DNA of 64,000 nt from an uncultured Planctomycetota bacterium (GCA_963823665.1 CAWGMQ010000004.1:1696001-1760000); one strand, 5' to 3'; counted from the first letter of the stretch, positions 15,578 to 48,504 are shown. Program-made: numbers and translations. Notes: generated by a model not told the origin, from the letters alone.

Positions 15578-15814
15578 CCAGCTTGGATCGGTTGGCCTAC
15601 CTGGGCGGATACCTTGTCCACGCTCAAGGCGGGCTTGAATGGTTCTTATCCGGCTGTTACTTCCATGTGCCCCTGCGTCCGGGCACGGGCCTTGGACAGC
15701 TTGATCTGCACGTCATAGCCCAGGCGGATGATGAAGCGGAGCAGCCTGTCGGTCGAGAATCCATCGAGGCGGCCTCTGAGCAGTTCGGAAACCTTGGGCT
15801 GGCGGATGCCGAGC
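15578..15814 (-). repeat. Scaffold repeat A copy 1 (3' part of XRE/HTH_37 gene + downstream DNA)
   Basis: Aligns by eye with parts of 27743-28179 and 34491-35150. Confidence 0.85.
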
Positions 15815-15910
15815 TATCTGGCACCGTGTACCTTCATCAACCTCCACAGCAACACGCGGCAATCCCGCTGCGGATCGTCGTGGCAGTCAATTATTATCAT
15901 ACTCATAGCA

Positions 15911-17090: not shown

Positions 17091-17276
17091 GTGGGCCATT
17101 GGTTCCGATAGCACACTTCAGCGACAATAACGATGCGAGAAGATGTCTGTGCGTGCTGCGGCGATTCCGCGCAATTCGAACACGAGCACGTAACTCCCAA
17201 AAGCTTCGCACGGGTTGAATGGACCTACGCCGTCCTGACGAGCGGCCAAGTCAAATTGAAGAGGAGCGGAATGAAG

Positions 17277-17672
17277 ATGGCACGCAGCGTTTCGACGCAT
17301 CTCATGTTCGAGGGGGTTGCCGAGGAGGCGATGACTTTTTAGGTCTCGCTGTTTCGAGGGTCAGAGATCGTCAAGGTTGAGCGATACGGACCTGGGGAGC
17401 ATGGGGCGGAGGGCACCGTCAAGGTAGCGAACTTTACTCTCTGTGGGCGAGAGTTCATGTGCATCGACAGCCCGATCAAGCATGAGTTCACATTTACTCC
17501 GTCGATTTCGATATTTGTCGAATGCGAGAGCGACGCCGAAATCGAAGACGTGTTCGGCCGGCTTTTGTCCGGTGGGAACGTATTGATGCCGCTCGGCAAT
17601 TACGGGTTCAGCACAAAATTCGGCTGGTTGAAGGATCGGTTTGGTCCGTCGTGGCAACTGGACCTCTTATGA
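17277..17672 (+). pseudogene. VOC/PhnB-like protein, scaffold repeat B copy 1, nonsense codon
   Basis: TAG at 17340 where other copies have TAT; FTPSISIFVEC..FGWLKDRFGPSWQL. Confidence 0.85.
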
Positions 17673-26676: not shown

Positions 26677-26904
26677 ATTCGTCGCGCGGGACGATCAGCG
26701 GCAAAGCTAGGTCGCTGTTTATCGCTCTGGAATGCCGGTTAACGCATCCTCGAGGATTTCGGCGGCGATCTGCATGGGGCTTGCCTTGCGTCCGTTGGTG
26801 CTGCTCTGCTCGGCCAGGCGGATAAGCTGTTGTCTCGTGGCGTCGCTCATCGGCACCTTGGGATGGCGTACCCAGCTTGGATCGGTTGGCCTGCCCGGGC
26901 GGAT
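26677..26904 (-). repeat. Scaffold repeat A copy 2
   Basis: Aligns with the left parts of 27743-28179 and 34491-35150. Confidence 0.85.
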
Positions 26905-27742: not shown

Positions 27743-28179
27743 GCTCAGTCGCTGTTTATCTGTCTGGAATGCCGGTTAAAGCATCCTCGAGGATCTGGGC
27801 GGCGATCTGCATGGGGCTTACCTTGCGTCCGCTGGTGCTGCTCTGCTCGGCCAGGCGGATAAGGCGTTGTCTGGTGGCGTCGCTCATGGGCACCTTGGGA
27901 TGCCGCCGTACCCAGCTTGGGTCGGTTGGCCTGCCTGGGCGGATACCTTGTCCAGGCTCGAGGCGGGCTTGAATGGTTCTTATCCGGCTGTTATTTCCAT
28001 GTGCCCCTGCGTCCGGGGACGGGGCCTTGGACAGCTTGATCTGCACGTCATAGCCCAGGCGGATAATGAAGCGGAGCAGCCTGTCGGTCGAGAATCCATC
28101 GAGGTGGCCTCTGAGCAATTCGGAAACCTTGGGCTGGCGGATGCCGACCAGTTTGGCAGTTTCGGCCTGCGTCAAACGC
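27743..28179 (-). repeat. Scaffold repeat A copy 3 (5'-truncated, frameshifted XRE gene)
   Basis: TQAETAKLVGIRQPKVSELLRG; 1-nt insertion relative to copy 4. Confidence 0.85.
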
Positions 28180-34403: not shown

Positions 34404-34753
34404 ATTAGCTTGCCTCCGAGATGTCAGCTTAGCATAATCGAGCCGGTTTGCCAATGGGCGGATAGGCTGGTGTCAAACGACAAATCGCCGATTCGTCGCG
34501 TGGGACGATCGACGGCGGGGCTCAGTCGCTGTTTATTGGTCTGGAATGCCGGTTAAAGCATCCTCGAGGATTTGGGGGGCGATCTGCATGGGGCTTACCT
34601 TGCGTCCGCTGGTGCTGCTCTGCTCGGCCAGGCGGATAAGCCGTTGTCTGGTGGCGTCGCTCATGGGCACCTTGGGATGCCGTACCCAGTTTGCGTCGGT
34701 TGGCCTGCCTGGGCGGATACCTTGTCCAGGCTCAAGGCCGGCTTGAATGGTTC

Positions 34754-35080
34754 TTATCCGGCTGTTATTTCCATGTGCCCCTGCGTCCGGGCACTGGCCT
34801 TGGACAGCTTGATCTGCACGTCATAGCCCAAGCGGGTGATGAAGCGGATCAGCCTGTCGGTCGAAAATCCATCGAAGCGGCCTCTGAGCAATTCGGAAAC
34901 CTTGGGCTGGCGGATGCCGAGCAGTTTGGCAGCTTGGGCCTGGGTAAGACGCCGTCGCTGGACAATCCCCAGAATCTCAGCGGCAAGCTGGGATTTAGCC
35001 ATATATTCGTCGGCGTTTTCAATCCCTAGGTCGGCAAATACATTGCCGCTGCTGTCGTGGACGATGTTGTCAGCGGTCAT
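34754..35080 (-). CDS. XRE/HTH_37 (HigA-like) antitoxin/regulator
   Basis: SSGNVFADLG..LTQAQAAKLLGIRQPKVSELLRG..FSTDRL. Confidence 0.9.
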   Translation of the reverse strand: MTADNIVHDSSGNVFADLGIENADEYMAKSQLAAEILGIVQRRRLTQAQAAKLLGIRQPKVSELLRGRFDGFSTDRLIRFITRLGYDVQIKLSKASARTQGHMEITAG

Positions 35081-37301: not shown

Positions 37302-37802
37302 ATGGCAGACGACGAGTTATCTGAGCTGGCTGATTCGATACGTGATTCCTACGCGCGGCGTAGAGCCAAACATGATCGCCGCCGCCGCATCGACCCTACA
37401 ACCTTTGATAGAGAGTACACTGCCGAAGAGATGGAATTCATGCGGGCGATGCAGGCTTATAAACAAAGCAGCGGGCGCATGTTCCCAACCTGGTCGGAGG
37501 TGTTGAAGGTCTTGCGGAGCCTGGGTTATGAAAAGGTAGATCGTAGAGATGCTGACGGTGAAAGCGTCGTAGAATTTGTGCAGGCGATGCAGGCTTATAA
37601 ACAAAGCAGCGGGCGCATGTTCCCAACTTGGTCGGAGGTGTTGGAAGTCTTGCAAAATCTTGGTTATCAGAGAGCAGGCGGAGAAGCGCATAAGGATACG
37701 CAGTCCGCACGTAGCGCGTTAACGACAGCTACGAGCGAACCACATGCTGCACCGCGCACTGTCAACCGGGGTAATGTGATCGCTGAAGCGATTGGTACCT
37801 GA
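37302..37802 (+). CDS. Hypothetical protein with tandemly duplicated [18 protein letters not shown] domain
   Basis: [10 protein letters not shown]..; 138-bp-period internal repeat (37434 vs 37572). Confidence 0.75.
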
Positions 37803-37878: not shown

Positions 37879-37912
37879 ATAATGGGTAATAATCCCCTTT
37901 ATGTAACGCCAA
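37879..37912 (+). other. dif-like recombination site S1
   Basis: ATGGGTAATAA-TCCCCT-TTATGTAACGC(CAA). Confidence 0.65.
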
Positions 37913-38013
37913 TCCGGGGCAGGGGTCAAGCGGCGGTCTGGGTTCGGCGAACCTGAAACCGTAGATTTGTGCTCGAGATGTTGTAGATTGATTGTTCCAC
38001 GTCCAAGGAGGGG

Positions 38014-38377
38014 CAGCGACAATGGCGATGCGAGAAGATGTCTGTGCGTACCGCGGCGATTACAGGCAAGCCGAACAAGAGCACGTAATTCCCCAGAGGT
38101 TCGCACGGGTTTGAACGGACGTACGCCGTCCTGATGATCAGCCAAGTCAAATTGAAGAGGAGTGGAATCGAGATGGCACGCAGCGTTTCGACGCATCTCA
38201 TGTTCGAGGGAGTTGCCGAGGAGGCGATGAAGTTTTATGTCTCGCTCTTTCGACGGTCAGAGATCGTCAAGGTTGAGCGATACGGACCTGGCGAGCATGG
38301 GGCGGAGGGATCCGTCAAGGTCGCGACCTTTACTCTCTGTGGGCGAGAGTTCATGTGCATCGACAGCCCGATCAAGC
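38014..38377 (+). pseudogene. Scaffold repeat B copy 2: upstream region + 3'-truncated VOC/PhnB gene
   Basis: Aligns with 17119-17480; homology stops after CIDSPIK. Confidence 0.85.
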
Positions 38378-38409
38378 CTCTCATTTCGGGCCACGATGTG
38401 AGAGGGGTG

Positions 38410-39291
38410 TTAACTTGGAATGGATAGCGTCGAAACAAAAGCGAGCAGCTCGGCCCATGCGTGATCGAATTCGATGAACTCGGTCGTAGTCTTCCGAATC
38501 TGCGCATCGTAAGTCGACGACGCCTTCTGTCTCACCTTCTCATCAAAGGCCGACTTCGTCGCGACAATTTCCCGAGCGGCGGACTTCTGCAGAAGGAAAG
38601 ATGAAACCTTGCCGAGGTCAATCAACGCCGAGTGCTTGCGAACCATTGAGGCAATATCGAAAACGTCTTGAGGGCGTGAACGATTCCGGGGAATCTGCTG
38701 AAGGAGAGCCCGAAGCTTTTCCGCGAGAATATCCTCGAGGGTGCAGACCCGAAGTGGAATCGATTCAGGACCGAGCTGCTCATCCCCGGTTTCGCACAGC
38801 ACGTCATTCAGGCTGATTTCGACTTCGACCACTTCAGAGAGCGTCTTTCCGGCTGAAAGCCGCTCGTCGATGTTTTGGAAGTATCTGTCGCCGGGGAGCT
38901 GATAGCAGACCTTGAGGTTGTAGGTTGGCCTGGTCTTATCGACACCAGGCGGATTTCGACGAATGCTCTGACACCGAGCCTTGACCTGATATCGCCGTTC
39001 TTCTGTCTTCAACGCAGTATCCATAAGCCCCTTGATAACTTCTGCACTGTCTGGGAAATCCTCGACGGCGCTGAAATCGAGGTCGAGCGTGCTCCGCATG
39101 TTGCCGTGAATGAAGCGAAGGGCGTTTCCGCCCTTAAACGCGACGCGAGAAACGAACGCAGCCGATGAGGACATCGACACCAGAATCACGAACTGGACGA
39201 AGCGACGCCTCGCTTCCTCCGCGGTCGTGCCATGCAGCTTTCGCCAAGCATCGAGCTCGGCAATTGAGGTTGGATAGCTTCCTGCTTCCAA
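38410..39291 (-). CDS. abiEii: AbiEii/AbiGii nucleotidyltransferase toxin
   Basis: FKGGNAL..RSTLDLDF, LAEKLRALL, RPQDVFD. Confidence 0.9.
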   Translation of the reverse strand: MEAGSYPTSIAELDAWRKLHGTTAEEARRRFVQFVILVSMSSSAAFVSRVAFKGGNALRFIHGNMRSTLDLDFSAVEDFPDSAEVIKGLMDTALKTEERRYQVKARCQSIRRNPPGVDKTRPTYNLKVCYQLPGDRYFQNIDERLSAGKTLSEVVEVEISLNDVLCETGDEQLGPESIPLRVCTLEDILAEKLRALLQQIPRNRSRPQDVFDIASMVRKHSALIDLGKVSSFLLQKSAAREIVATKSAFDEKVRQKASSTYDAQIRKTTTEFIEFDHAWAELLAFVSTLSIPS

Positions 39292-39298
39292 GCGGCCT

Positions 39299-40198
39299 CT
39301 AATTCTCTTCCAAGATGGCCAAAACGGACTGCGGAACGTTTAGCGAAAGATTCCACTCCGCCGAGAACGTCGTCGCATACGGGTTACGTGCGACCAACTT
39401 TACCGACCCTCCGCGTTGCAGTCCATGCCGCCATTTGGCGAGCAGAGGATGAGTCTTCCCTAACTTTTCAAGGAGAAAGCCCACCCGCTGTCGGAGCACC
39501 TTGTGTCCATAATCGTCTGCGTAGGAGACGAGCTTGGCGACGTCGACGTTTTCGGCTGACCGCCACGCTTGAAGCACCTTCTCAATGCCGCCCGACTTTT
39601 CAGGCATCCGAATCGCGTCAAGTAACGTTCGTTCGACGTCGGTGACATAAATCGGAATGCCGAAACTGTAACCGACGATAACGCCGAAGCCAGGCTCCGA
39701 CGAAAGCTGTGTCCAGATTACCCGGACACCTCGCACCGTCAGGGGACGCTTCGCCGTGAGAAGCGAGCTCGCTTCAGACCAGTCTTCTGGTGTCGTGCCA
39801 AGCGGTAACCGGTCGGCGTTTTCTGCTCGTTCGCTCGCAATCGGGTAGACCTCTGTCGGAACGAGGTCTGTGATGCCGTGGTAAGCCATCGCGGTAAGGA
39901 AGCCGAAGACCGCCCAAGGATTTGCTTCCTGAATGATTTGCTCTTCGGAGACCTCAAGCAAATTCGCGTAGGCTACGTTCACCACATAAACGCCGGAAAC
40001 GCCTTCAACCGACACGACCTCTCCTCGTCGGACGAGCTCCTTGCGGATGGCCTGAGCCTTCTCTTCATCCGGCAGAGGGGAGTTTTCAGCTCTGGCTATC
40101 TGGCGAGCAATTACAAGAATTCGCCAGTCGGAAATGACTCGACGTCGAGTCTCTGCAAGCACTCGGAGGATGTTGGACGCAAATGTCTTAGGGCCCAT
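39299..40198 (-). CDS. abiEi: AbiEi-type antitoxin/transcriptional regulator
   Basis: TAMAYHG, VTDVERTLLD, QRVGFLLE, WNL; upstream of AbiEii. Confidence 0.85.
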   Translation of the reverse strand: MGPKTFASNILRVLAETRRRVISDWRILVIARQIARAENSPLPDEEKAQAIRKELVRRGEVVSVEGVSGVYVVNVAYANLLEVSEEQIIQEANPWAVFGFLTAMAYHGITDLVPTEVYPIASERAENADRLPLGTTPEDWSEASSLLTAKRPLTVRGVRVIWTQLSSEPGFGVIVGYSFGIPIYVTDVERTLLDAIRMPEKSGGIEKVLQAWRSAENVDVAKLVSYADDYGHKVLRQRVGFLLEKLGKTHPLLAKWRHGLQRGGSVKLVARNPYATTFSAEWNLSLNVPQSVLAILEEN

Positions 40199-40462
40199 AG
40201 AAAGAGTCGAGCATCGCGAGTAAGATGTCCTGAGGACATCTTACTCGCGATGCAACTCAAAGTCAAGGATAAAATGAAAATCTTGTCAAGATTAGGAATG
40301 GTTGTAATGATCGCCGAAACCGAAGAAGACCTGGAGCATTTCGCCGCGATGGGCGAATGCGAATTCAGTAATGGCGAGTGGGCTCGGCTGGATGCCAAGA
40401 GGCGGCCCGTGACGGCGATTAATCAGGGCTGCCAGGTCGCATCAGTCAATGCATAATCATTG

Positions 40463-40954
40463 CTAGAGTTGCGGTGGCTGCGTCTCGATCATGAGGTGTT
40501 CCACGGGCCACGTCATACCGTCACGGGGGCCAGCCATGCGGACAAGGCCCACCGTTACTTTCCCCGCACCTTTTTCGCCTTCCCATTGCGAAAAACTTTG
40601 GATCTGGCGACTGATGCCGTCGCCGACAGCCTGCTGGACCAGCCGTAGCAAGGCACTTTTCCAGTTCTCGCCAGATAGGCTCTCACCTGTCGTAAGCACC
40701 TCGCTGCTCGGTTTGCGGATCGTCATCGTGAAAATGGCAGAGTCCTCCGTTAATCGAAGCCTAAGGGATCGGGCGATCTTGTCCGCGGAATCGAGTTTCA
40801 GTCCGCGATCGCCGTCAAGAAATCGTTGCACAATGGTGTGGCTCAGCTCGGCGTCCTTAGCGACCTTATAAGCCGTAAGCCCCCGCTGGCGAATAACTTC
40901 ACGAAGCTGCTCCGAAATTGTCAGAGCGGGGGTAGAGGTCTTTTCGGAAATCAT
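40463..40954 (-). CDS. XRE-family HTH protein
   Basis: ISEQLREVIRQRGLTAYKVAKDAELSHTIVQRFLDG. Confidence 0.75.
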   Translation of the reverse strand: MISEKTSTPALTISEQLREVIRQRGLTAYKVAKDAELSHTIVQRFLDGDRGLKLDSADKIARSLRLRLTEDSAIFTMTIRKPSSEVLTTGESLSGENWKSALLRLVQQAVGDGISRQIQSFSQWEGEKGAGKVTVGLVRMAGPRDGMTWPVEHLMIETQPPQL

Positions 40955-40997
40955 AAATACCTCAATTTGTCGTGATTCTCGCCATTACCACACAGTT

Positions 40998-41025
40998 ATT
41001 ATACGCCAATTGTTCTACGAGTCAA
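40998..41025 (-). promoter_or_regulatory. Sigma70-type promoter of HTH gene
   Basis: Minus strand TTGACT-16 bp-TATAAT, -10 box ending 43 bp before the ATG. Confidence 0.6.
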
Positions 41026-41145
41026 ATGGCACATGTGACAATTGACGCCGCTTTCGCGGGCAATCCAGGATAACGGGTGAAATGCAGAGGCTTGTATCCG
41101 GAGTGCCGCAGAAAGTGGCTCGCCTTCACGAAGGGCGGTGTCGGC

Positions 41146-41176
41146 GCTTCGGATACAAGGGATTGGACTGAACCGC
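41146..41176 (+). other. dif-like recombination site S4
   Basis: GCTTCGGATAC-AAGGGA-TTGGACTGAAC(CGC); right arm inverted at 44211-44224. Confidence 0.5.
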
Positions 41177-41432
41177 GGGCAGGCGGGCGACTATGGAGAT
41201 TCAATCGCGGGCTTTCCAGCAGGTGAGCGCGTTGTCGGCCGGGAGCGGTGATTCGATCGCTGGAAAGCCGGTTGGTGTGCCGTAGCCGGTGCTCGATTTA
41301 GGCCCAACCTGGGCTTTCTTCAGGCCTATGGACACGAAATCCTGCTCGCCGAACAGGGAATCCACGGTCACCCTCGAAGGGCGGTGTTGACGATGGCGAG
41401 TCATCAGGTTGCTCCCGTCCATCTGGAAGGGT

Positions 41433-42668
41433 TTAGGAAGTATCAAATGCCACCGCCTCGGGTGTGGGACCGCAGTGAGGTCCTTCACTCGGGTCGGCCG
41501 GAAGCTCCCCGAGAATCGCGACGATGAACATATAGCCCTTGCCGCAAGCAGGGCAGACGTGCATCGCGTGTTCTCCTTCGGCAGCGACCTGCTCTTCTGG
41601 AGCCGGCTCAGGCGCCCCCGGTTCCAAGGAGGGCTCGGTCTCCTCGAGTAGCTCGCGACACAGTTCGAGATTCTCCCGGCACACCCGGTTAGCGAGGAAG
41701 CCATAATGCCGGATTCGGACGAATCCGGCGGGTAACACATGCAGGAGGAATCGGCGGATGAATTCGATCGCTTTGAGCGCCATCGTCTTCTGCTTTCCCT
41801 CGTGCGCGTAATCCTTCCAGTGGAACGTAACCTTGCCGTCCTCAACCGTGATCAGCCGGTGATTGCTGATCGCGACCCGGTGGGAGTACCGGGCCAGGTA
41901 TTTCAGCACCTGTTCCGGGCCACCAAAGGGAGGCTTGGCGTAGACAACCCATTCGGTCTTGGCACTGGCAGTGAGCCGGCGCTGAAACTCGGCCGGGTCG
42001 GCCAACGAAGCGAGCGTGCCGTGCAAGGAAAGCTTGCCCTGATCGAAGGCGAACTTAAGCAGAGCGAGAAACTTCCCCCGAAAGAGGCGGCTGAGGACAC
42101 GGACCGGTAGAAAGAAGCCGGGTTTGCAAGGGACCCATCGCGCGCGATCAGGCGACAGCCCGCCACCCGGCACAACGCAGTGGACGTGCGGGTGATGTTG
42201 CAGGTTCTGGCCCCAAGTGTGGAGGACGGCCAAGAAGCCGATCTCAGCCCCGAGGTGCTTCGGGTCGGCGGCGATCTGCTGCAAGGTCTCGGCGGCGCAT
42301 TTGAACAGGAGACCGTAGACCACCCGCTGATTCTGCAAGGCAATCGGGTCGAGCGCCGCCGGAAGCGTAAATACGACGTGATGATATTCGACCGGCAGCA
42401 ATTCCGCTTGCCGGGCCTCCATCCACTCCGCGGCGGCGGTTGCCTGGCACTTCGGACAGTGCCGATTGCGGCATGAGTTGTAGGCGATCTGCTGATGGCC
42501 GCATTGATCACATTCCTCGATGTGTCCGCCTAGGGCAGCAGTCCGACAAGCTGCGATGTCGCGCAGAGCGCGACGCTGCTCGGACGAGAGCGTGTCGCCA
42601 TATCGGTCGAGAAAAGCATCACCATAGTCGCGAACGACCTCGGCCACTTCGAGCCGAGGTCGGTTCAT
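41433..42668 (-). CDS. IS91-family (HUH/Y2) transposase
   Basis: CRTAALGG, YNSCRNRHCPKC, HVVFTLP, LHTWG..HPHVHC, YLARY. Confidence 0.95.
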   Translation of the reverse strand: MNRPRLEVAEVVRDYGDAFLDRYGDTLSSEQRRALRDIAACRTAALGGHIEECDQCGHQQIAYNSCRNRHCPKCQATAAAEWMEARQAELLPVEYHHVVFTLPAALDPIALQNQRVVYGLLFKCAAETLQQIAADPKHLGAEIGFLAVLHTWGQNLQHHPHVHCVVPGGGLSPDRARWVPCKPGFFLPVRVLSRLFRGKFLALLKFAFDQGKLSLHGTLASLADPAEFQRRLTASAKTEWVVYAKPPFGGPEQVLKYLARYSHRVAISNHRLITVEDGKVTFHWKDYAHEGKQKTMALKAIEFIRRFLLHVLPAGFVRIRHYGFLANRVCRENLELCRELLEETEPSLEPGAPEPAPEEQVAAEGEHAMHVCPACGKGYMFIVAILGELPADPSEGPHCGPTPEAVAFDTS

Positions 42669-43496
42669 GGCCGGGACTCACCGGGTAGGGGACCGATCCG
42701 GTCGAGGGGGCTGCGCGTTGCCTCGACAACGCCTGGCGACACGTGGGTATAAATGGCGGTTGTCTCGAGCTTGCGATGGCCGAGAAGCACCTGAATTGTC
42801 CGGAGGTTGGTGCCGGATTCGAGCAAATGGGTCGCGAAACTATGCCGCAGAGTATGCACCGTAACGTGCTTGCCCAAGCCGGCGTGTTGCGCGGCGCGGA
42901 CGCAGATTTTGTGCACGGCTTTTCCGGTGATGGGTTTGTCTGGGACGTCCCCGGGGAAAAGCCAGTCGGTCGGCCGAACGATTTTCCAGTATTCACGGAG
43001 CAGCGCGAGGAGACGAGGCGAGAGCATGACGTAGCGGTCCCGACGTCCTTTGGCTTGTCGGATGCGGATGACCATGCGCTTGCTGTCGAGGTCATCAACT
43101 CGAAGGCCGATGACCTCAGAGAGCCGTAAACCCGCGGTGCTTGATGTCGATCAGCCCTGCGAAGAACGTGGCGACTTCGTCTGAGCTGAGAACGACAGGG
43201 AGGCGCTTGGGTTGCTTTGGGAAGGGAATGCGATCCAGGGCATCCTTTCGACCGAGGGTGACCTCGTAAAGGAACCGCAACGCGGCGAGGGTCTGGTTGT
43301 AGACGCTCCAGGAGACCTTCTTCTCTTGAATGAGGTGGAGCAGGTAAGATCGAACCCCCTTTCTGCCGAGGTGCTCGGGCGACCGCCTGTAATGTCCTGC
43401 GAAGAATCTGACACGCGAAACGTAGGCGTTGATGGTCCGTGTTGAGAGATTCTTGAGCTTCATGTCCTCGATCATTTGGCGTCGTAGCGGTGTCAT
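42665..43496 (-). pseudogene. Tyrosine recombinase paired with IS91-like transposase, internal deletion/frameshift
   Basis: MTPLRRQMIEDM; GLRLSE, KGRRDR, HTLRHSFATH, LLGH, TAIY; frame break at about 43135. Confidence 0.88.
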
Positions 43497-43645
43497 GATG
43501 TGCTCCCGTGTTGAGGTAAAAAGGGGAAGCGTTTATCATGGCTAGGTAGAAGCGCTGAGCGTGTGCGTGTGTCACGCAACCGGGCGCCTGTGACGCGGCA
43601 AGCCGGGCTTGTGTGTTAAAGAATCAAGGACGCGGCGGACAGGCG

Positions 43646-44086
43646 ATGGGCAGCGAAGCGATCGTCCAAAACTTGATCGGTGTCTTCCCTCGAAGGATAG
43701 TGGAGGGTCCAGTAACCCCACATGATTGCCCTGAGTGTCTGGAGTTGCGCGGGCAACTCACCGGGACCACTTGGCCTGATGTCCCGCTGGAGTTCATTCG
43801 CGACCATCCTGACGTATTACCGCTGCTGTCGCCGGAAGCCTATCTGACCTTCCTACCCGCGTGGCTACACCAACGTGTCCTCGAGCCTGAGGGCGAAGTG
43901 GCTTCCATGCTCCTCGTGAACCTCGCATGTGATTCCGATCCGACAGGGTTTGCATTCGAGCAACGCGACGCCATCATCGAAGTGGCCCGATTCATCGTGC
44001 GGAACAACGGCTGGGGGCCGGAAGACCCTGAAAACGCGAAGTCCCTCGTCGCGATCGAACGGGCATGGGCGGACGTCATAGCCTAA
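43646..44086 (+). CDS. Hypothetical protein (DUF6714-like)
   Basis: HDCPECLEL..W..LPLLSPEAYLTFLPAWL. Confidence 0.6.
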   Translation: MGSEAIVQNLIGVFPRRIVEGPVTPHDCPECLELRGQLTGTTWPDVPLEFIRDHPDVLPLLSPEAYLTFLPAWLHQRVLEPEGEVASMLLVNLACDSDPTGFAFEQRDAIIEVARFIVRNNGWGPEDPENAKSLVAIERAWADVIA

Positions 44087-44210
44087 ACCCCGGGGCGGAG
44101 AATGCGCGAGTGTAACCGACGCATTTGGCGTGGACCCTGAGCGTGTGATCCCGACATACCGCTGATAGACCCGTAGCAGGAAGGCCAACGCTTCAAAGGT
44201 CTACCGCGCA

Positions 44211-44244
44211 GCGGTTTAGTCCAATGTCCTTTATTACCCGTTAT
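44211..44244 (-). other. dif-like recombination site S3 (hybrid arms)
   Basis: Minus strand ACGGGTAATAA-AGGACA-TTGGACTAAAC(CGC). Confidence 0.6.
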
Positions 44245-44386
44245 CCGCAGGCTGGACTCAAATCGCGCTTTGCCTGTAACGGCTGATTTATAAATCACCG
44301 CTTACGATCTTGGTGTCACTTGACGGTGATTCGTTTCGCTTCCGAATTCATCGGGGGCCACCCATCCGGCATACCGAGGGCTCGAT

Positions 44387-44995
44387 TTACTCTGGCTGTG
44401 CCGGGACCGATGGGCTCGAGGCGGGCGTGACGGGTTCCAGGTCTAACAGCTCCGGATCATCAAGTACCGCCGCCGGTCTGTCCGCTTCCACTGCCTCGAT
44501 TAGGCGACCATCTTTTATTACCATCTGAACCGGTGGAGGGCTGCTCGGATAATACAACCTCGCGATCCGTGCGACCAAGGACATACTCAGCGCTGACACG
44601 ATGACCGCGACGCCAATCCAGCCCGCCCTCGCGACCATCCCTGGACGGTCACGCCTGTACCTCGATCTCAGCCCTGGGATGAATCGGATTGCCAGGTAGG
44701 TGGAGGCGTAGAGGCCGCTGGCCACCACCAAGATTAAGGCCGTCGCCGCTCGCCAGAGCATCTCCCGGGCAACGCGAGCATCGTCGCTTGCCGCAATTAG
44801 ACGCTGCTCCGCGACATCGTAGGCCCCAATGGCTCGCAGTTCGGGTACCTCCGCCAGCCAGCGGGGAGCGCGCGTGAAGAGGAAGATGGAGGTCTCCAGA
44901 AAGCGGATGCTCGTGTAGAAGTAGAAGGCCAACGCAATCGCAGCCACTGCGAGCATTAATTGTTGCGCGGTGAAACGGACGCGGGGCAGGCTCAT
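44387..44995 (-). CDS. Hypothetical membrane protein
   Basis: Planctomycete-type RFTAQQLMLAVA N-terminus, three hydrophobic segments. Confidence 0.6.
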   Translation of the reverse strand: MSLPRVRFTAQQLMLAVAAIALAFYFYTSIRFLETSIFLFTRAPRWLAEVPELRAIGAYDVAEQRLIAASDDARVAREMLWRAATALILVVASGLYASTYLAIRFIPGLRSRYRRDRPGMVARAGWIGVAVIVSALSMSLVARIARLYYPSSPPPVQMVIKDGRLIEAVEADRPAAVLDDPELLDLEPVTPASSPSVPAQPE

Positions 44996-45119
44996 GAGTC
45001 GATCGACCTCTTGTGCTGGAGACGCTGCATTCGGCATGCTCGCATGTGCGGCTGATCTCTAGATGACCCGTTACACCACGGATTTGACGTAAGTTGTTAA
45101 TCGTCGTAGAAAGTTCCAT

Positions 45120-45971
45120 TCCTCGGCGTTTAATCATCCGCCAGGCGTCGATGCGGTGCATAGGCCGGTCCGTTAAGCGACGGTGGCGGTCGATGGAGCG
45201 GAAGAGGGGGGTTTTCTTCTCTCCGGCAATGCCTGCTGCCGCGATGTAGGCATCCAGATAATCCTCGGCGTTGTGGTGGGCGGGCACCTCGTGCCGTTTG
45301 CCGCCTTTCTCGTGCAAGCGGAACCATGCCCGCCGGCCCTCGGTGTAATAATCCTCTACTTTCATGCCGAGGGCGGCGGTGACGCGGGCGAAGCTGAACA
45401 CCATTACGGCGATCAGTGCCCGGTCACGTAAGCCCACCAGGCTGGGCGGCCGGTTGTCTTCCTCGCCTTCTTTCGGCTCCGGGCCGATCTTGAGGGGGAT
45501 GCTGTCGAACAACTCTCTCGCCTCGTCGGCTTTGAGGACCGGGGTTTTGCCCTTCTTCACGACGTGCTTAGCGGCCCGCACGGCGGCGGCCGGGTTGGCG
45601 TCGATCACCTGCCCGGTAATCAGCCAGTCGAACAGCATCCGTAAGGACGCAAGGTGCTGCTTGACGGTTGGCGTGCTGGCCCGAGTTTCCTTGCCGGTCA
45701 GCGTAAGCTCGGCCAGGTAGGCTGATACGTGGTAGCTCTTGATGGCGGATAGGCTCAGGCCCTTGGCGTGCGACCAGGCGAAGAATCGCATGGTGTTGCG
45801 GTAATAGGCCGCCCGGGTGTTGGCGTTGGGGATAGTGTCGGTGAAGAAGGTGAAAAACCGCTCGGCGGCTTTGTCGCCCTGGTCGGCGATGACGGCGGGC
45901 AGGGTGAAGCTGCTCCGGTGATTGGTTAACGCTCGTTGATGATTGGACGCTCTTACCAGCTCCGTACCCAT
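45120..45971 (-). pseudogene. Tyrosine recombinase, C-terminally truncated
   Basis: NTRAAY, RDRALI..FARV, HEKGGK; similarity ends at AWRMIKRR before HxxR and catalytic Tyr. Confidence 0.85.
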
Positions 45972-45990
45972 GATCAGTAGCTCCCTCCAG

Positions 45991-46021
45991 TTGGCGTAAC
46001 ATAAGAATTTTTATGTCTCGC
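45991..46021 (-). other. dif-like recombination site S2, about 20 bp upstream of recombinase ATG
   Basis: Minus strand GCGAGACATAA-AAATTC-TTATGTTACGC(CAA). Confidence 0.7.
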
Positions 46022-46353
46022 TGTTTCGAGGGTCAGAGATCATCAAGATTGAGCGATACGGACCTGGCGAGCATGGGGCGGAGGGGACCGTCAGGGTCGC
46101 TACCTTTACTCTCTTTGGACGAGAGTTCATGTGCATCGACTACCCGATCAAGCATGAGTCTACCTTTACGCCATCGATGTCTGCCTTTGACGAATGCGAG
46201 AGCGACGCGGAGATCGAAGATGTGTTCAGCCGGCTTTCGGTCGGTGGGCAAGGATTGATGCCGCTCGGCAATTATGGGTTCAGCACAAAATTCGGGTGGG
46301 TGAAGGACCGGTTTGGTCCGTCGTGGCAGCGTAACCTTTCGAGAACGCTGTAA
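46005..46353 (+). pseudogene. Scaffold repeat B copy 3: 5'-truncated VOC/PhnB gene
   Basis: Homology to the 48004 copy begins exactly at GAATTTTTATGTCTCGC. Confidence 0.85.
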
Positions 46354-46434
46354 GCCCCGTGGATGTCACAGCAAGCGCCGGATGTCCGCGAATCGCGCCT
46401 CGCCAAAGTCCGCTAAGTTTGTGTTACTTGTGGT

Positions 46435-47565
46435 TTAGTGATTTCGAGTTTTGGAGGTTGCATCGCGCTTACCTTCGAGCAACTTGCGTGTTCGTTCCAA
46501 TTCGCTGGCCAGCGTTTCCTCGCTTGGCAGGGCTGTGAGATACTCTGCGGCGAGGATCGTGCTCGAGATGCCCTCCAGGGCGTAACGGGCGACGCCTGCG
46601 CGGTGCTCGGCGCAGAGGATCAGGCCAACCGGCGGATTCTCGTCGGTTCGGGTCCAATGATGGCGAGCGTAGTTGAGGTACAGGTTCATCTGACCGATAT
46701 CGCCGGCGGTGATGGCGGCGAGTTTTAGATCAATGAGGATCAGGCAGCGGAGTCGACGGTGAAAGAACACCAGGTCGATGCGGAACCACTCATCATCGAC
46801 GCGCAGCCGCTTTTGGCGGCCGACGAAGGTGAAATCATCGCCGAGCTCGAGCAGGAACGTTTCCAGATGGCGGATCAGCGCCTCTTCAAGCTCGTTCTCA
46901 GAATACTCGTCCTTCAGGTTGAGGAATTCCAGGACGAACGGGTCCTTGATCTCCTCCTCGGGCGTGAGAGTGTCTTCGGGCCGGGCTTTCTGCCCTTTGG
47001 TGAGCGTCGCAGCCTTGTTGCGGGATAACATGGTACGCTCGTAAAACTGTGTGCTGATCTGGCGGTCGAGTTGCCGCACGTTCCACCCGGCGCGCACGGC
47101 CTCTGTTTCATAGAATGAGCGTGCGTCGGGCTTTTTGACCGACATCAGGCGGACATAGTGAGACCAGGAAAGCAGAAAGTTTTTCCCCAGTTCGACCAGG
47201 GTCGTTTCGCCATACCCGGATTTTGCAGACGCTGTCTGCAGAATTCGCGGGTAGGCCAGGTAAAATTGACGCATCTGGTAGAGGTTCCGGTGGCCGAACC
47301 CGCGGCCGCACCGGCGAGTGAGGTCTTCGGACATGCGGGTGACCAGTTGCTCGCCATAGCCAGCACGATGCTTTCCGCGTTGCTCCTCCTCGACGATCCG
47401 ACGGCCGATTTCCCAGTAAGTGGCGGTCATGATGCTGTTGACGGAACGGGCCGCGGCGTGACGGGCCGACTCCAGGACTTGAATTACTCCGGCCAGAACA
47501 GCTTCATAGGTGTCGTCGCCGGTCTTCGCAGGCATGCGCTTAGGGCGGTTGCGTTTCTTTGCCAT
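46435..47565 (-). CDS. yhcG: YhcG/DUF1016 PD-(D/E)XK nuclease family protein
   Basis: YWEIGRRI, LSWSHY, KDPFVLEFL, FLLELG..FVGRQ, IDLK, GQMNLY, GLILC. Confidence 0.92.
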   Translation of the reverse strand: MAKKRNRPKRMPAKTGDDTYEAVLAGVIQVLESARHAAARSVNSIMTATYWEIGRRIVEEEQRGKHRAGYGEQLVTRMSEDLTRRCGRGFGHRNLYQMRQFYLAYPRILQTASAKSGYGETTLVELGKNFLLSWSHYVRLMSVKKPDARSFYETEAVRAGWNVRQLDRQISTQFYERTMLSRNKAATLTKGQKARPEDTLTPEEEIKDPFVLEFLNLKDEYSENELEEALIRHLETFLLELGDDFTFVGRQKRLRVDDEWFRIDLVFFHRRLRCLILIDLKLAAITAGDIGQMNLYLNYARHHWTRTDENPPVGLILCAEHRAGVARYALEGISSTILAAEYLTALPSEETLASELERTRKLLEGKRDATSKTRNH

Positions 47566-48003
47566 GCTTCCGTATAGCATGTTCGAGGCAGGGGGCAAAC
47601 CGGAATTCCCCGGGCGGATCAAGATTCGACCAGGCGGAGGCCGAGGAGTTCTTTCAACGAATCGCGGGAGGCGAGGACGTCGCGCGCGTCGGCGGTGAGC
47701 GAGAAGCGTTCGCGAAGCTGCTCGATCTAACGGTCGGTGACGGCGGGGGTGGCGATGATCAGATCAGAGTAGCCGGATTGCAAGTGCGTAGATGGTATGC
47801 AGGCTTTCCGTCGCCGAGGACACCGGAGGCGGTGGTGCGGAGCCTGCGGTGGAATTCGCGCTTCAGGCGGAACAGCATTTCCAGCCCAGGTTGCACGTAT
47901 CCCCGATGGCTGCGTTGCGTGGGCTCGATTGCTCCAATACGCTCGAGGGATTTACCGTTGTCCCGGCGAGCGGCCAAGTCAATCGAAGAGGAGTGGAATC
48001 ACG

Positions 48004-48504
48004 ATGGCACGCAGCGTTTCGACGCATCTCATGTTCGAGGGAGTTGCCGAAGAGGCGATGAATTTTTATGTCTCGCTGTTTCGAGGGTCAGAGATCATCA
48101 AGGTTGAGCGATATGGAGCTGGCGAGCATGGGGCGAAGGGGACCCTCAGGGTAGCGACCTTTACGCTCTGTGGGCGAGAGTTCATGTGCATCGACAGCCC
48201 GATCAAGCATGAGTTTACGTTTACGCCATCGATATCTATCTTTGTCGAATGCGAGAGCGACGCGGAAATCGAAGACGTGTTCGGCCGGCTTTCGGCCGGT
48301 GGGCAAGTATTGATGCCGCTTGACAATTACTGGTTCAGCACAAAATTCGGCTGGGTGAAGGATCGGTTTGGGCCATCGTGGCAGCTTAACCTTGCGGTGG
48401 TTCACCAGGCCGCCGCTCGAGAAACGCCCCACCAGGCCGCGACCAAGCCGATGAAAAGCAGGCCCGCGAAGGTCGCAACCGCGACTGACAAGACGGCGTT
48501 CTGA
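48004..48504 (+). CDS. VOC/PhnB-like protein, scaffold repeat B copy 4 (intact, native stop lost)
   Basis: MARSVSTHLMFEG..DRFGPSWQLNL then reads into the convergent gene. Confidence 0.8.
   Translation: MARSVSTHLMFEGVAEEAMNFYVSLFRGSEIIKVERYGAGEHGAKGTLRVATFTLCGREFMCIDSPIKHEFTFTPSISIFVECESDAEIEDVFGRLSAGGQVLMPLDNYWFSTKFGWVKDRFGPSWQLNLAVVHQAAARETPHQAATKPMKSRPAKVATATDKTAF

Follow-up and report, generated by a model that had tools for sequence, protein, structure and literature searches.

Members of the IS91 family insert at a fixed tetranucleotide target by way of oriIS, integron cassettes are characterized by the canonical box spacing of attC and by an invariant G|TT crossover, and ResD/rfsF, Cre/loxP and TnpI/IRS are plasmid-encoded resolvases with an adjacent site. 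In this work, we compared such systems with a locus found in a 64,000-nt stretch of planctomycete DNA (the window), which belongs to a 16.5-Mb host genome (G000) whose closest named homologues are Isosphaeraceae. Within this stretch, an earlier note had described four dif-like 11-6-11 sites, S1 to S4, bounding nested tyrosine-recombinase segments. According to the accessible part of PMC13141974, pdif sites have distinct XerC and XerD arms, lie in inverse alternating orientation, are acted on by host enzymes and need near-identical spacers, and PMC3025954 predicted no dif site for Planctomycetes. In the available text of bioRxiv 10.1101/542381, IS91-associated recombinases are placed in an Integron-like subgroup, and the accessible portion of PMC9226527 describes CTXphi as having a hairpin attP that is integrated by one strand exchange and resolved by replication.

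Our results favour two overlapping systems, rather than the single module-shuffling system previously proposed: S1 and S2 would be arms of the site of a plasmid-type recombinase, and S3 and S4 would belong to an IS91-type element with its own integrase, lodged inside a sister site that it likely entered as a folded single strand. We give this reading a probability of roughly two in three. The features concerned are the following, in window coordinates:

37879..37912, + strand: S1, a hybrid family site with outer sister-type arm 37879-37892, spacer 37893-37898 and recombinase-cognate arm 37899-37912
to about 37936, + strand: native flank of the cognate arm of S1, whose spacer is of the AGGGGA class read on the - strand
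41069..41082, - strand: right arm of the family site split by the inner element, one base short of the intact L014/L147 site
41083..44224, - strand: integrase plus IS91-family (HUH/Y2) element, 3142 bp, true ends
41083..41176, - strand: conserved 3' terminal hairpin with S4 (arm B1 41163-41176; stem 41143-41158 and 41092-41107; 9-nt tail 41083-41091)
41433..42668, - strand: IS91-family transposase, open frame of 411 aa (NF033538, 472 bits, cut-off 125)
42665..43496, - strand: IntI-like tyrosine recombinase, frameshifted here
44211..44244, - strand: S3, made of the element 5' end B2 (44211-44224), the native spacer of the target (44225-44230) and its left arm (44231-44244)
45121..45971, - strand: plasmid-type Xer-like recombinase that ends before the C-terminal catalytic motifs; intact paralogue (L002) in the same genome
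45991..46021, - strand: S2, made of cognate arm 45991-46004, a spacer of VOC coding sequence (46005-46010) and pseudo-arm 46011-46021

The coordinates, strands and sequences of S1 to S4 agree with the earlier note, as does the 13/14-nt identity within each of the arm pairs S1/S2, S1/S3 and S3/S4. The rarity of single arms, assessed in G000 by pattern searches with reversed-arm controls, is not decisive evidence against chance: with up to one mismatch, 2 matches to the S1/S2 arm occur in all 16.5 Mb, compared with 3 for its reversed control, and the S1/S3 arm has 3 (2 of them exact) compared with 2 for its control. The non-random arrangement of the sites is instead indicated by their register and by the recurrence of the arms as intact palindromes in relatives. 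All exact arm matches lie inside 8.2 kb and keep the 6-bp register, and ATAA-N6-TTAT occurs at two sites in the window and at 0, 0 and 0 in three mononucleotide shuffles. That all four spacers differ is literally so, but the spacer of S3 is native to the target, that of S1 belongs to a common family class, and S4 is not a junction at all.

The intact paralogue of the outer recombinase displays 89% identity over the shared part and lies in a plasmid-like region, with open reading frames (ORFs) read from their translations as restriction-modification, RepA-like and ParA-like; upstream of it stands an intact 14-6-14 palindrome whose left flank matches the inner flank of S1. At two further loci (L014 and L021), both sides of the intact site are formed by the S1/S2 arm, and its right flank matches that of S2. 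It follows that the two arms of the recombinase-cognate site are those present in S1 and S2. The protein family was found in 126 plasmids (E<=1e-60), mostly of Proteobacteria, and a near-palindromic ATAA-N6-TTAT was located upstream of the gene or its operon in 6/6 plasmids examined, five of them whole and one over 50 of its 54.7 kb. In 121 family genomes, the strict motif ATAA-AGG(G/A)(C/G)(A/G)-TTAT had 128 hits, distributed in 61 genomes, compared with 7 control hits. Within 2.5 kb of homologues, this motif was upstream in 51 and downstream in 8 of 107 hits (109 rows minus two second pieces of split genes), which bears out the view that these are tyrosine-recombinase-type sites. Arms vary with the neighbouring protein, with a mean of 7.8/10 shared bases in pairs above 75% identity and 2.7 in pairs below 45% (Mantel rho 0.40, 0/2000 permutations, n=58, in a set that includes duplicates and motif-selected loci), and the S1/S2-type arm is present in all 8 entries at >=80% identity. 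Spacers fall into three classes (AGGGCG, AGGGGA and AGGACA) that share the AGG half, AGGGGA being found in 23/94 catalogued sites.

Because a symmetric core site adjoins a single recombinase gene on plasmids, the family site is likely the resolution site of this recombinase. Such a pairing is also part of the general statement on plasmid resolvases in the accessible text of PMC5357621; in contrast to those resolvases, the present family has 14-6-14 sites, three spacer classes sharing AGG, clade-specific arms, and mixed-arm sites in chromosomal islands. The motif strings had no match in the literature text searched; the cognate site of this widespread plasmid recombinase family is defined here, and the site family is new. 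A Tn3-type resolvase context was considered and rejected, as no Tn3 transposase was present among 96 neighbouring ORFs; in one plasmid, a Tn3 gene stands at a distance of about 5 kb. Among the plasmids, a 21-kb one (L217, NZ_CP034331.1) carries the recombinase and site with tet(G) about 2 kb away. At L264-L269, a family recombinase gene is flanked by a pair of inverted AGGACA/AGGACG sites spaced by about 1.05 kb; three genomes have 3, 2 and 1 copies of this arrangement, which may be an invertible or one-gene mobile unit.

These data bear on the proposal that S1 to S4 are pdif-like sites shuffled by the host XerC and XerD, which would have built the island from modules. The 11-6-11 layout and an ATAA/TTAT core like that of dif are shared with pdif sites, 30 of the 128 family sites have another within 10 kb, and toxin-antitoxin and defence genes lie nearby, resembling the clusters of 11-6-11 sites by toxin-antitoxin and other accessory genes of Acinetobacter in the accessible part of PMC13141974; in addition, the host has Xer-like genes, the best XerD score being 312 bits, just below the 329.6 cut-off. 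Yet the intact sites are symmetric, with no separate XerC and XerD arms, and their arms follow the adjacent, element-encoded recombinase, so that the pdif-like modules of the earlier note are not borne out. The canonical XerD arm is absent from this genome and none is conserved in 60 family genomes; host dif itself was likewise discarded, with 0 hits of the canonical pattern in G000 and a count near control level in the 60 genomes. All three family sites of the window (S1, S2 and the one split by the inner element) share a direct, non-alternating orientation; neither the arm asymmetry nor the inverse alternation described in the available text of PMC13141974 is displayed here, and AbiE occurs without these sites in a same-genus genome. 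We regard the building of the island by host Xer shuffling as very improbable; given the Xer-like genes, host Xer proteins may nevertheless be involved in some way.

For the inner element, the boundaries had to be corrected. The segment previously placed at 41163-44224 runs from 41083 to 44224, with the outer arm of S4 and 63 further bases inside it; DNA homology with other element copies continues past S4 to 41081, and this outer arm, once taken for a boundary, is conserved within homologous elements. S4 is internal to the element, forming part of a conserved terminal hairpin, and S3 is the insertion junction. The transposase is an IS91-family HUH/Y2 protein (PF04986, PF14319 and NF033538 above cut-off), and the integrase scores below the cut-off of TIGR02249, its intact homologue having IntI4 as best PDB hit. 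In parsed copies, arm B2 forms the 5' end, and the 3' end is made up of arm B1, 4-5 nt, a 16-bp stem with its loop, which is variable, and a tail of 9 nt. The hairpin of the window folds with a z of -3.15, and 6/15 consensus stem pairs display compensatory changes (17 sequences). Joining of the ends in silico brings B1 into pairing with B2, and 14/14 junctions fold, with z from -4.5 to -10.4 against mononucleotide shuffles. In 16 copies, after two identical ones were dropped, B1.B2 pairing reached 197/224 (permuted mean 185) and stem pairing 246/256 (215), both above all 20,000 permutations, although these statistics and their p-values are inflated, the ends having been picked by regular expressions from the same motifs and the copies being kin and not independent. 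The window copy is a decayed relic, its integrase frameshifted and the outer recombinase truncated near 45121.

Other copies and ends of the element were recorded. G000 has a second full element at C4:1344642-1347205, further 5' ends at C3:1259475, C4:641677, C4:794437, C5:1644304, C7:158384 and C8:1933376, and a 3' end at C5:1544967, those on C5 abutting family-type arms. Three tandem copies of the 3' end lie within about 250 bp at G011:C43:28194-28446. The window-type 3' motif was not found outside G000 in 400 genomes sampled across the phylum. Most copies have about 200 bp between the 5' end and the integrase; L114, L115, L139, L140 and the window (43497-44224) have 0.5-0.9 kb extra, a possible cargo capture.

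Removal of the element in silico brings the S3 arm and spacer against the arm at 41069-41082, giving a family site one base short of that of L014, where the intact site is likewise downstream of the recombinase, with order and orientation preserved. The element splits its targets between the 6-bp spacer and the right arm, and at L387/L389 it divides a perfect 14-bp palindrome with spacer AGGGCG. In a hand count over family genomes, 23/79 5' ends followed ATAA-N6 (about 0.1 expected at 60% G+C; the pattern left out ends with C 21 bases upstream), ten of the 23 with a strict family spacer; for the TTGGAC subtype, to which the window copy belongs, the proportion was 9/12. Similarly, 3' ends were followed by TT in 37/44 and by TTAT in 16/44 (hand count), and in 80 metagenome loci ATAA-N6 preceded 13/52 5' ends, with a 3'-end count of 6/14. 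There is no fixed tetranucleotide target; targets are N6|TT with ATAA/TTAT enrichment. Furthermore, the last base of the element equals the last base of the target spacer in 15/18 complete copies (permutation p 5e-5), compared with only 8 and 4 of 18 for the second- and third-last bases. This last base may be A, G, T or C, and it is the element's own, since three near-identical copies in one genome keep it unchanged where the target differs.

Could the HUH transposase alone produce this pattern? Under such an explanation, insertion would proceed by the IS91-type rolling circle, the integrase would only resolve multimers at S4 as a double-stranded 11-6-11 site, and the target bias would reflect AT-rich or protein-bound DNA. 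The transposase is indeed a full IS91-family member, the 6-bp register that separates the two arms of S4 is conserved, ends occur singly and, for the 3' end, in tandem, and most 5' ends are away from family sites. Nevertheless, the insertion point coincides with the exact cleavage register of a tyrosine recombinase, at the spacer/arm edge, B1 changes in concert with the 5' end far from it, the last base agrees with that of the target, and the fixed tetranucleotide is missing; we thus judge transposase-only insertion unlikely.

The single-strand route favoured here would begin with a single-stranded circle made by the HUH transposase, whose joined ends would fold into an attC-like hairpin with B1 paired to B2; the IntI-like integrase would then exchange one strand with a double-stranded ATAA-N6-TTAT site, with about one base of homology needed, and replication would resolve the integration junction. 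Integron-like single-strand integration of this kind, inferred from the comparison of copies, would fit both the target preference and the last-base match, and is favoured because the geometry matches a cassette joined at N|TT and parallels the hairpin attP of CTXphi.

With integron cassettes, the element shares a TTRRRY start, a terminal foldable site whose outer arms pair once the ends are joined, N|TT joining and an IntI4-like integrase; it differs in carrying its own integrase, which lacks most of the IntI-specific insertion, and an HUH protein, in an internal loop of 4-5 by 9 nt, in an N not fixed as G, and in targeting palindromic resolution sites. Its transposase is that of the IS91 family, but its target is not the fixed tetranucleotide. 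The combination of an IS91-family transposase with an upstream IntI-related recombinase without the IntI insertion is shared with elements described in the available text of bioRxiv 10.1101/542381. As far as the accessible parts of PMC9226527 and PMC5357621 go, CTXphi and the integrative mobile elements that exploit Xer (IMEX) share with it a hairpin attP from single-stranded DNA, a dif-type target and a single strand exchange, features that for our element are inferred; IMEX borrow host XerC/D at the chromosomal dif, in contrast to the own integrase and plasmid-type targets seen here. Insertion sequences of the IS1202/ISAjo2 family also hunt dif-like sites in a fixed register (accessible parts of PMC10132070 and bioRxiv 10.1101/2022.12.17.520857); in the available text of PMC10132070, these have a DDE transposase, terminal inverted repeats and a 5-bp duplication, and insert 5 bp beside the XerC arm, whereas the window element cuts into the site at the edge of the spacer and shows no duplication of that kind. 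No description of the attC-like terminal hairpin, the insertion register or the preference for plasmid resolution sites was found in the literature searched, which left ISfinder, TnPedia, most subscription journals and supplements outside; the resolution-site target and the one-base rule are new here.

The outer sites have distinct origins. The outer arm of S1 is 13/14 identical to the perfect palindrome of the sister site in L147/L014, and another genus also has a site of this hybrid type (L283), which the element has split. In S2, the outer arm and spacer are VOC (PF06983) coding sequence, VOC homology beginning exactly at 46005. S1 could have arisen by cross-recombination of two family sites sharing the AGG spacer half; S2, which joins a foreign spacer to the edge of the arm, is best read as an off-target product, putatively from recombination with a pseudo-site inside a VOC gene. 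Each of these events would require that an intact recombinase of the family, for example the paralogue L002, was present. The outer arm of S1 derives from a sister site and that of S2 from the 3' half of a VOC gene, two unrelated loci, so that a minimum of two outer events has to be assumed. Two simpler pairings were rejected: the S1 and S2 flanks are not halves of one VOC gene, as VOC sequence is absent from the left flank and the fragments are just 91% identical where they overlap, and the outer arms of S1 and S3 are not halves of one site, as the partner arm of S3 lies at 41069-41082.

One could alternatively see 37899-46004 as a single Tn916-like element with inward-facing arms and non-matching 6-bp coupling sequences. 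Both cognate arms do face inward with native flanks, as after integration of a circle, and at S2 the junction coincides precisely with the edge of the arm, next to a wholly foreign spacer; moreover, the 16 A-arm sites of relatives comprise 7 with another partner arm, 4 without a site-like partner, 4 near-palindromic ones and 1 split by an inner-type element. Against this, the outer flanks do not rebuild one target, only the S2 spacer is foreign, the usual state is an intact site beside the gene, plasmids included, and no second 8-kb unit was found in the genome, only separate parts being matched among the 121 family genomes, all of which makes a single Tn916-like unit improbable. Arm reassortment is real but not the rule, with 4 hybrids among 94 catalogued sites in a strict automated count; of what was put forward earlier, mixed-arm sites do exist (S1, L283), and S2 looks made without spacer homology.

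Several observations weigh against the two-system reading, in addition to the inflation of the pairing statistics. About 70% of the 5' ends (56/79) are not at ATAA-N6, the preference being partial and subtype-dependent, and the one-base rule is broken in 3/18 copies. The alignment of the integrase homologue to IntI4 skips most of the IntI-specific insertion. The 58/68 figure of the arm/protein set includes motif-fetched loci and duplicates. A circle or tandem junction of joined ends was found neither in 458 loci nor among the joints listed from four sequencing runs, although assembled DNA would rarely show one, and those runs contained at most 9% of words, no listed contig spanning the region, so that they bear on neither habitat nor structure; one contig joint skips 43517-44200, where the cargo ORF lies. 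Regarding the outer sites, the VOC fragments by S1 and S2, being 91% alike, derive from different copies.

A broader proposal, which we consider tentative and rather doubtful, is that the recombinase family and its sites constitute a XerCD-independent mix-and-match network: the AGG half would let one strand exchange join non-cognate or pseudo-sites, capturing as well as reshuffling planctomycete island DNA, and the IS91-integrase lineage, self-mobile and cassette-shaped, would have specialized on the sites as landing pads, as an IMEX-like parasite with its own integrase that exploits plasmid resolution systems. On the two-system reading, the recombinase accompanying some IS91-family elements would have a concrete function open to testing, namely single-strand cassette-like integration with one-base homology, which is relevant to the possible descent of integron integrases and attC sites from ancestors of the Xer type. 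The clade-specific arms, each with one of three spacer classes, also provide a natural collection of recombinase/site pairs that employ a single protein and may be orthogonal to one another.

The remaining features of the region are:

38014..38377, + strand: VOC/PF06983 gene copy, 5' fragment with upstream region, truncated at 38377
38410..40198, - strand: AbiEi/AbiEii toxin-antitoxin pair, not a site-bounded cassette
40211-40253: 21-bp perfect inverted repeat upstream of AbiE
40463..40954, - strand: Cro/C1-type helix-turn-helix (HTH) gene
43613..44086, + strand: cargo ORF of 157 aa with no Pfam hit, most homologous elements having no insert here
45052..45120, no strand assigned: at the recombinase cut-off, probable end of another mobile element, the third and unrelated to the others, probable partner end 44253-44295
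46005..46356, + strand: VOC gene copy, 3' half, starting exactly at the S2 spacer
46435..47622, - strand: YhcG/DUF1016 nuclease gene; L014 and plasmid NC_019893.1 also have a YhcG-type gene upstream of their site and recombinase

In a same-genus genome, the syntenic island has AbiE at 92% identity and one VOC copy, with no family site in the stretch and one unrelated ATAA-N6-TTAT match in 40 kb. AbiE as site-bounded cargo is thus not supported, its boundaries lying off S1-S4; the idea that the sites built the island is not supported by this synteny, which likewise reveals no coincidence of the AbiE breakpoints with S1-S4. Judging from this comparison, the sites appear to decorate the island and not to have delivered AbiE. 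The window has four VOC (PF06983) copies of about 90% identity (17119-17665, 38014-38377, 46005-46356 and 47960-48396), two of them truncated and one with an apparent in-frame stop. A promoter scan across S2 found none.

The probable end of the third element at the recombinase cut-off (45052-45120, with 44253-44295) recurs at 15 places in 8 family genomes and has its own 6-bp-spaced core; both ends are about 1.5 kb apart in L375, and those of the window enclose an ORF of 216 aa that lacks a Pfam hit. An arm-like 14-mer at 40996-41009, with two mismatches to the S2 arm and no partner arm, lies upstream of the HTH gene and is conserved in L336/L374. Immediately left of S1, a 166-aa ORF holds a 96-bp internal duplication (37434-37667), and pieces of an HTH_37 (HigA-like) antitoxin region are repeated at about 90-94% identity at 15578-15823, 26677-26904, 27743-28179 and 34491-34952.

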